Origin: Escherichia phage UPWr_E4
Strand: one strand, 5' to 3'
Length of the DNA stretch: 64,000 nt
Sequence record: PP418987.1
The notes under the pieces were generated by a model, which was not told the DNA's origin, ran no database searches, and saw nothing but the letters and a program-made list of their open reading frames with translations. Shown here piece after piece: positions 14,042 to 14,825 of this stretch (position 1 is the first letter of the stretch; every line of letters starts with the position of its first letter). A program made the translations under genes and the position numbers.

Positions 14042-14622
14042 TGATTAAATTGGTATTCGCTTATTCTCCAACTAAAACGGTTGAGGGCTTTAATGAATTA
14101 GCATTTGGTTTAGGTGATGGTTTACCATGGGGACGAGTTAAAAAGGACCTCCAGAATTTTAAAGCTCGTACCGAAGGTACAATTATGATTATGGGTGCTA
14201 AAACGTTCCAGTCATTATCTACATTACTTCCTGGTCGTAGTCATATTGTGGTGTGTGACCTTGCGCGTGATTATCCTGTAACTAAAGACGGCGATTTAGC
14301 ACATTTCTATATTACATGGGAACAGTATATAACTTACATTTCTGGCGGCGAAATTCAAGTGTCAAGCCCTAACGCACCATTCGAGACTATGCTTGATCAG
14401 AATTCCAAAGTAAGTGTAATTGGCGGGCCTGCTCTGTTATATGCTGCGTTACCTTATGCGGATGAAGTAGTTGTTTCTCGCATTGTTAAAAGGCATCGTG
14501 TTAATTCAACGGTTCAATTAGACGCAAGTTTTCTTGATGATATAAGCAAGCGTGAAATGGTTGAAACGCATTGGTATAAAATAGATGAAGTAACAACCCT
14601 TACGGAATCAGTATATAAATGA
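14041..14622 (+). CDS. frd: dihydrofolate reductase
   Basis: 193 aa; [37 protein letters not shown]... recognised as T4 Frd. Confidence 0.9.
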
Positions 14623-14825
14623 GCAATAAATTAAAAGTTAAGGATGTTCCTAATGCTATGGCCCTTTTTATTTGTCGGCAGATGCATCAAGGGCCTATGA
14701 CACCAAAACAATATCTTAAAGGTGAGCGTTCTTTAGGATTTACTCGCAAAGCAAAACAAATGGTTAAATTAGGATATAAGCCTAACTTTGCCAAATATCC
14801 TTCTACATATTCTTGGATGAACTAA
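14619..14825 (+). CDS. small basic protein (68 aa) between frd and td, function unknown
   Basis: ORF whose start overlaps the frd stop (ATGA) and whose stop overlaps the td start (TAATG). Confidence 0.5.

Follow-up and report, generated by a model that had tools for sequence, protein, structure and literature searches.

A small basic gene between frd and td of a T-even-type phage as one state of a variable locus

In the classical textbook description of phage T4, the genes for dihydrofolate reductase (frd) and thymidylate synthase (td) overlap in the tetranucleotide ATGA. The stretch of DNA analysed here (64,000 nucleotides, hereafter the window) has an additional reading frame, orf68, at this junction, and the questions are whether this frame is a gene, how it came to lie in the operon and what its product might do. 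The window is a segment of a T-even-type phage genome whose closest relative is Escherichia phage vB_EcoM-fFiEco06 (99.6–100% identity). Its gene order is gene 32, frd.1, two small ORFs, frd, orf68, td with an intron and I-TevI, nrdA.2/nrdA.1 and nrdA (Table 1).

An initial annotation, made from the letters of the window, had described a lysine- and arginine-rich ORF of 68 amino acids in the frd-td gap with overlapping codons on both sides, and had stated that frd and td are directly adjacent in T4. The translation is exactly as quoted there, and the statement on T4 is correct: in T4 (NC_000866), frd (145109–145690) has 4 nt in common with td, whose end is at 145112, and there is no ORF in between, so T4 does not carry the same gene. 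When the two junctions are aligned, the window differs from T4 by a clean 206-bp indel. The operon, the 3′ end of frd and the ATGA are the same in both, but in the window a 206-bp gene lies between two copies of AATGA. The ATG of orf68 (14619–14621) overlaps the TGA of frd (14620–14622), giving ATGA, and its TAA (14823–14825) has one base in common with the ATG of td (14825–14827), giving TAATG. The td gene of T4 begins at the same upstream sequence and ATG as are found at the left AATGA copy of the window. The 7.9-kDa product of orf68 contains 10 lysines, 3 arginines, 1 aspartate and 1 glutamate (pI 10.3).

Table 1. Features of the frd-td region, in positions of the window
Feature	Position	Strand	Remarks
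frd (dihydrofolate reductase), 193 aa	14041–14622	+	Final 100 nt are exactly those of T4
AATGA direct repeat, left copy	14618–14622	+	Contains the frd stop TGA and the orf68 ATG
orf68	14619–14825	+	ATG-initiated 68-aa basic protein, PHROG 9550; predicted helices at residues 13–24, 29–39 and 43–49
Dhakavirus-type patch, about 256 bp, in a Tequatrovirus backbone	14619–14875	+	orf68 and the first ~50 nt of td; right edge approximate
GGATG, Shine-Dalgarno-like motif for td	14815–14819	+	From the Trp66-Met67 codons of orf68; 5 nt 5′ of the td ATG
AATGA direct repeat, right copy	14824–14828	+	Contains the orf68 stop TAA and the td ATG
td exon 1 (thymidylate synthase)	14825–15373	+	Exon end set by identity to the T4 td exon/intron boundary
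td group I intron with I-TevI (15505–16242)	15374–16389	+	Boundaries inferred from T4; context, outside the cassette
td exon 2	16390–16701	+	Position after the td intron

Homologues and coding status of orf68

The homology search that the initial annotation had proposed places orf68 in PHROG 9550, with residues 1–68 aligned to profile positions 1–68 of 68 (E = 1.3e-45, 154.5 bits). This is an uncharacterised family without an assigned function, a Pfam model or a solved or similar structure. With tblastn, homologues were found in 237 phage records. The protein is present at an identity of at least 99% in 88 phage records, where it is deposited as 'hypothetical protein', and at an identity of at least 80% in about 137 records (Tequatrovirus, Dhakavirus and Marfavirus). 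Further copies are found in Kanagawavirus and Serratia phage 4S, and about 70 copies at roughly 43% identity are located in phAPEC8-like Phapecoctavirus, which are not T4-like. An exhaustive profile search of 1.84 billion representative proteins returned only 11 clusters of the family (one spurious), and a search of 5.8 billion proteins returned 40 clusters, all of 66–108 aa save three fragments of 42–58 aa; none of these is named. P0025, a 1402-aa repetitive metagenomic protein (unit ...NVPSALGLHVCHQGLH...), was rejected as spurious, with residues 9–29 of the profile (about 20 residues) matched six times. The gene is not new, as upwards of 100 GenBank records annotate it as a hypothetical protein and it has a PHROG of its own; a search of the accessible literature gave no paper containing its sequence or dealing with this frd-td junction. 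In the RefSeq record of JS10 (NC_012741, L015 2501–2707), orf68 is unannotated, though the frame is intact and conserved. Two records carry the labels 'flagellar biosynthesis protein' and 'DUF4858' on orf68 (NC_054944/MH809535, PYPS2T; MZ502379, Shinka), and both labels appear spurious, Pfam being empty at E <= 10.

An alignment of 32 diverse members runs end to end, with R20, M48, G52 and P55 invariant and K4, K6, P11, K34, F41, L51 and Y53 near-invariant. The amino acid identity of orf68 is 81% to Marfa, 69% to CIP9 and 62% to 4S; the corresponding values are 79%, 85% and 80% for Td exon 1 and 47%, 49% and 42% for Frd. Its conservation is thus similar to that of thymidylate synthase and far above that of Frd. 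Values of dN/dS are 0.16 versus Marfa, 0.19 versus CIP9 and 0.08 versus 4S, with synonymous sites near saturation, and range from 0.08 to 0.28 against four other genera. Both the length and the frame are kept across five genera, and also in the phAPEC8-like phages at 43% identity.

A frame that is open by chance, or non-coding spacer DNA that is free of stop codons by coincidence, would agree with the shortness of orf68, with its lack of a characterised homologue and with its being left unannotated in some records. This reading does not withstand the comparison between genera. In DNA of 36% G+C, 68 codons without a stop would arise by chance with P of about 0.005 in each frame, and the full-length match to the PHROG, the low dN/dS values and the retention of length and frame, even in the distant phAPEC8-like copies, all argue against it. 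A chance origin is ruled out by this conservation; the comparative data refute it, and we give it virtually no credence. Judged by its sequence conservation, orf68 is a bona fide protein-coding phage gene. The extra gene that had been noticed between frd and td is genuine, and its dN/dS values indicate purifying selection.

Occupants of the frd-td gap and their exchange

When a 50-nt probe across the T4 junction was used, many Tequatroviruses matched in two pieces about 416 bp apart. The phages with the split match (ime09, Ge15, T2, RB32, PP01 and others) carry another gene in the gap, orfX, which encodes 115 amino acids and belongs to PHROG 1928. At an identity of at least 90%, orfX is found in 363 records. 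It is also present in 218 further records of other genera, and the sampled matches are again located between frd and td. The direct overlap of the T4 type, counted with a junction-specific 42-nt probe, is limited to 32 records, and about half of these are T4 stocks. The frd-td gap is shown by these counts to be a three-state accessory locus, holding nothing (32 records), orfX (about 363) or orf68 (about 137). T4 and roughly 70% of its close relatives are without orf68, and this presence and absence among close relatives, together with alternative non-homologous occupants, marks orf68 as an accessory cassette. Because the orfX and orf68 records and the arrays of distant T4-like phages outnumber the 32 direct junctions, a gap occupied by a small gene is the usual state and T4 is the rare exception. 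The initial annotation had implied that the T4 arrangement is the norm, and in this it was mistaken, since the direct junction is the rarest allele.

orfX is similar to orf68 in that it occupies the same locus on the same strand, is small, is flanked by short direct repeats and is widespread in T4-like genera. It differs in encoding a longer, unrelated protein (hhalign probability 0.2%) and in being set off from frd and td by short spacers with no overlap. Neither gene has a paralog elsewhere in the window. The two co-occur in Marfa, CIP9 and 4S but never in the Tequatrovirus records inspected; the order is frd-orfX-orf68-td in Marfa and 4S and frd-orfX-orfX′-orf68-td in CIP9. In PhiKpNIH-6, orf68 abuts td, and other small ORFs separate it from frd. 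A position directly 5′ of td is found for orf68 in at least five T4-like lineages (Tequatrovirus, Dhakavirus, Marfavirus, Kanagawavirus and Serratia phage 4S), and the stop and start codons overlap at the td start in each of the more distant T4-like phages named above (Marfa, CIP9, 4S and PhiKpNIH-6).

The stretch from gene 32 to td is variable throughout. Between frd.1 and frd, the window has two extra small ORFs (13440–13799, PHROG 3566, 119 aa; 13784–14041, PHROG 3183, 85 aa); the corresponding position holds a different ORF, of 81 aa, in ime09 and T2 and only a 71-bp gap in T4. In the T2 RefSeq record (NC_054931, L007 1111–1458), orfX is unannotated, though its frame is intact and conserved.

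The nucleotide identity between the window and Dhakavirus JS10 changes abruptly along the operon: it is 80.8% in frd, 97.5% in orf68 and 79% in td exon 1. A patch that is 97.5% identical between genera, with flanks at 79–81%, has the character of a lateral exchange. The 3′ end of frd in the window is of the Tequatrovirus type (0–2 mismatches per 50 nt to T4 versus 8–13 to JS10). Nucleotides 1–50 of td, on the other side, have 0–1 mismatches to IME08 and JS10 (they are identical to IME08) versus 7–8 to T4, T2 and ime09; beyond this point, a site-by-site comparison shows td to be of the Tequatrovirus type. As orf68 and nucleotides 1–50 of td are of the Dhakavirus type and frd and the rest of td are of the Tequatrovirus type, the pattern indicates that the patch was imported from a Dhakavirus-like phage in a recent exchange between genera. 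Presumably, the foreign flanks were afterwards shortened as far as the border of the non-homologous cassette, through further recombination with genomes of Tequatrovirus. The description of orf68 as an inserted gene is apt for this Tequatrovirus lineage, in which orf68 and the start of td are of foreign type; it fails in so far as it meant a departure from a T4 norm.

Hitchhiking on homing of the td intron by I-TevI was considered as the main driver of the exchange and rejected. When every ~10th record was sampled, the intron was present in 8 of 14 records with orf68 and in 17 of 45 records without it, an association that is at most weak. About 5 of 60 sampled records (H259, H262, H269, H271 and H272) match the query only to position ~848–860, which is ~100 nt into the td intron; these short matches suggest td intron variants without I-TevI or with different content.

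The AATGA repeats that bracket orf68 are themselves the two overlapping stop and start sites, and a deletion between them would give exactly the direct frd-td overlap of the T4 and IME08 type. Both arrangements are found within Dhakavirus, where JS10 (L015 2460–2750) has orf68 and IME08 (L016 ~660–760) has a direct frd-ATGA-td junction. The flanks are near-identical, and the difference between JS10 and IME08 is the same clean 206-bp indel. Because the junctions of IME08 and T4 each carry flanks of their own genus type, the direct overlap of IME08 is, on the sequence of these flanks, independent of that of T4. The orfX cassette of ime09 is flanked by a 9-bp repeat of the TAATGAAA type, TAAATGAAA (L006 1221–1229 and 1638–1646); removal of the 417-bp cassette between the two TAAATGAAA copies reproduces the T4 junction, and the 5′ end of T4 td is of the T2/ime09 type. 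We infer that the frd-td overlap of T4 is probably the deletion scar of a cassette-bearing ancestor and not the ancestral state. Deletion as the polarity appears to be favoured by the phylogenetic spread of both cassettes; the junctions alone fit either polarity. The cassettes would then be lost by deletion between short direct repeats made by the overlapping stop and start codons. Their exchange takes place by homologous recombination within frd and td on either side.

Expression context and predicted structure

The 100 nt located 5′ of the orf68 ATG are identical to the region preceding td in T4. Because of this identity, orf68 has an initiation region that works for td in T4. The phAPEC8 homologue has an AAGGAGG of its own. 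The sequence TGGATG ahead of the td start is conserved in JS10, Marfa, CIP9 and 4S. Members of the family that are linked to td have the C-terminus ...SWM(N/D), and the TGGATG codons form the Shine-Dalgarno sequence of td; most phAPEC8-like members, which are not beside td where the context was checked, end in ...WFD. A third subgroup (P0028, P0041 and P0042) has the C-terminal extension G(V/M)GDR..NLPLKPY.

No stable RNA structure is predicted over the start codon of either orf68 or td (z = +0.3 to +1.1), sites resembling promoters or terminators occur at the orf68 cassette at chance frequency only, and a Rfam scan of positions 13000–17500 gave no family. At the gathering threshold, the Rfam scan also missed the td intron (Intron_gpI), which is present by identity to T4; interruption of the intron core by the 738-nt ORF is presumably the reason. 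Translational coupling through overlapping stop and start codons is a general feature of bacterial and phage operons. orf68 has the marks of an operon gene, overlapping both neighbours in this way with no promoter or terminator between, and the sequence fits a plain extra cistron that would be co-translated with frd and td. It would form the middle cistron of a frd-orf68-td message. Ribosomes would most likely start orf68 at what in T4 is the td initiation region, consisting of the 3′ end of frd and the ATGA, and would terminate one base into the td ATG. The translation of td would most likely be started by re-initiation, helped by the GGATG supplied by the Trp-Met codons of orf68. As neither start codon is predicted to be masked by RNA structure, GGATG may also allow td to be initiated on its own.

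An AlphaFold2 model of the product, calculated with the diverse alignment of 32 sequences, has a pLDDT of 84.6 and a pTM of 0.62; the helices are accompanied by ordered N- and C-terminal extensions. An earlier model from 19 close sequences had a pLDDT of 63 and no Foldseek match in the PDB. The product is predicted to be a compact, confidently modelled three-helix core that resembles no solved fold. The family is uniformly basic, with a pI of 9.75–10.6 and a net charge of +7 to +17. Pfam gave no match for orf68 alone (E <= 10) and no match that would give a function for the 32 members, searches of NCBIfam and of PDB sequence profiles with orf68 gave nothing, and the PADLOC defence-system models gave no match to orf68 at E <= 1. 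A 17-residue stretch of orf68 bears what we take to be a resemblance to the helix-turn-helix motif of the MerR/Xis type. Assignment as a helix-turn-helix protein (MerR/Xis/AlpA-like or other) was nevertheless rejected, as no such Pfam family is matched among the 32 members (E <= 1) or by the query (E <= 10) and the fold has no likeness to solved helix-turn-helix domains.

Possible functions and relation to known systems

Taken as a whole, the data are best explained, on balance, by a real and swappable accessory cassette that was imported into this lineage, is dispensable and has a product that binds polyanions; we hold this explanation to be reasonably probable. The function itself can be named only tentatively, and the product of orf68 may be an accessory protein, not essential to the phage, with affinity for some polyanionic partner, of which nucleic acid is the likeliest. 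As there is no fold of the helix-turn-helix kind, it is the charge and the conserved basic residues that point to nucleic acid. As an accessory factor, the protein would be of use under certain conditions, with its synthesis in the early or middle phase of infection. It is presumably dispensable for dTMP synthesis, since T4 and most of its close relatives are without it. Outside the T4-like phages, homologues of orf68 are located in long same-strand arrays of small uncharacterised genes near replication genes; in the contexts examined, they are never beside td and have no conserved neighbours. In one large phage contig from a JGI metagenome, a distant homologue has a Tad2-like (PF11195) gene (L012 206–739) at a distance of ~4.3 kb, on the opposite strand and with no evident linkage. 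A functional link to Td could lie behind the strict adjacency of orf68 and td in the five T4-like lineages.

That orf68 is a counter-defence or host-takeover factor, inhibiting a host immunity system or another host function, is possible but doubtful. Its presence and absence among near-identical phages, the alternative non-homologous gene at the same locus and the recent transfer between genera would be expected of such a factor, and so would the occurrence of homologues in unrelated large virulent phages within long runs of small early-type genes, on one contig with the Tad2-like gene nearby. An identity of 81% between genera with Frd proteins that are only 47% identical is, however, unusual for arms-race genes, which usually diversify. 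The product has no apparent likeness to any described anti-defence protein, and its gene sits in a nucleotide-metabolism operon, not in a typical cluster of early accessory genes. A comparable pattern is seen at the ip locus of T-even phages, which is polymorphic and encodes inhibitors of type IV restriction enzymes (PMC12373910), but orf68 is absent from those supplements of this accessory-gene screen that were searched (PMC12373910). A role as functional partner, in which orf68 would be made in stoichiometric amounts with Frd and Td, bind Td, Frd or the td mRNA and modulate dTMP synthesis or complex assembly, is quite unlikely, although orf68 abuts the td start in five lineages even where other ORFs separate it from frd, its conservation tracks that of td and the overlapping stop and start codons favour equimolar synthesis. 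The dTMP pathway of T4 is well known to work without orf68, and most Tequatroviruses lack the gene; in phage contigs from metagenomes and in phAPEC8-like phages, the homologues lie away from td. Past residue ~17, the Td proteins of phages with and without orf68 hardly differ, which gives no sign of co-adaptation between Td and orf68.

Free-standing homing endonucleases of the seg and mob groups often sit between conserved T4 genes, and if orf68 were what is left of a mobile element, such as the DNA-binding tail of one of these enzymes in degenerate form, its place between two conserved genes and next to an intron that carries I-TevI would be explained. Truncated endonuclease genes do occur in T4-like phages (PMC2993671). 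But orf68 has no Pfam or PHROGs match associated with nucleases or endonucleases, none of its family is longer than 108 aa, purifying selection on it is strong and its association with the td intron is at most weak. The remnant reading is effectively refuted and has hardly any probability left. We also consider it unlikely that orf68 is either a new-fold basic mini-protein tied to Td or a new type of counter-defence that moves between genera as a 206-bp cassette. A tie to Td, through tuning of its translation or activity or through tethering of the dNTP-synthesis complex to nucleic acid, would explain both the Td-like conservation and the linkage to the td start in five or more lineages.

For the swappable accessory cassette, which we prefer, the consequences are mostly local. 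The T4-centred view of this operon is corrected, as the compact frd-td junction is a rare and probably deletion-derived allele. The locus is a tractable example of how small genes cross between T4-like genera by recombination in conserved flanks; of the foreign flanks here, one is trimmed to the edge of the cassette and ~50 nt are left of the other. Being very small, very conserved and without a fold relative, orf68 is a candidate for functional work. The missing annotation in the JS10 RefSeq record and the spurious labels elsewhere are annotation gaps. What is new is interpretive, namely the three-allele locus, the putatively derived overlap of T4 and the Dhakavirus-type patch; the ORF itself is already catalogued. 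The weight for the wider field is small, and the case is an ordinary but neatly resolved one of an accessory gene.

In its arrangement, orf68 is like the genes of translationally coupled bacterial and phage operons. It has a 4-nt overlap (ATGA) at one end and a 1-nt overlap (TAATG) at the other, a Shine-Dalgarno sequence inside the preceding gene and no intergenic signals; the coupling itself is putative. T4-related genomes consist of a conserved core broken by small lineage-variable ORFs, indels, replacements and lateral transfer (Petrov et al. 2010, PMC2993671), and the orf68 locus fits this general picture of mosaicism. It differs in location, since the review places the novel ORFs of these genomes in a region of ~40–75 kb (PMC2993671), whereas orf68 lies inside a tightly packed nucleotide-metabolism operon. 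Unlike the other variable segments of T4-related genomes (PMC2993671) and the ip locus (PMC12373910), the orf68 cassette is fused to both of its neighbours by overlapping stop and start codons.
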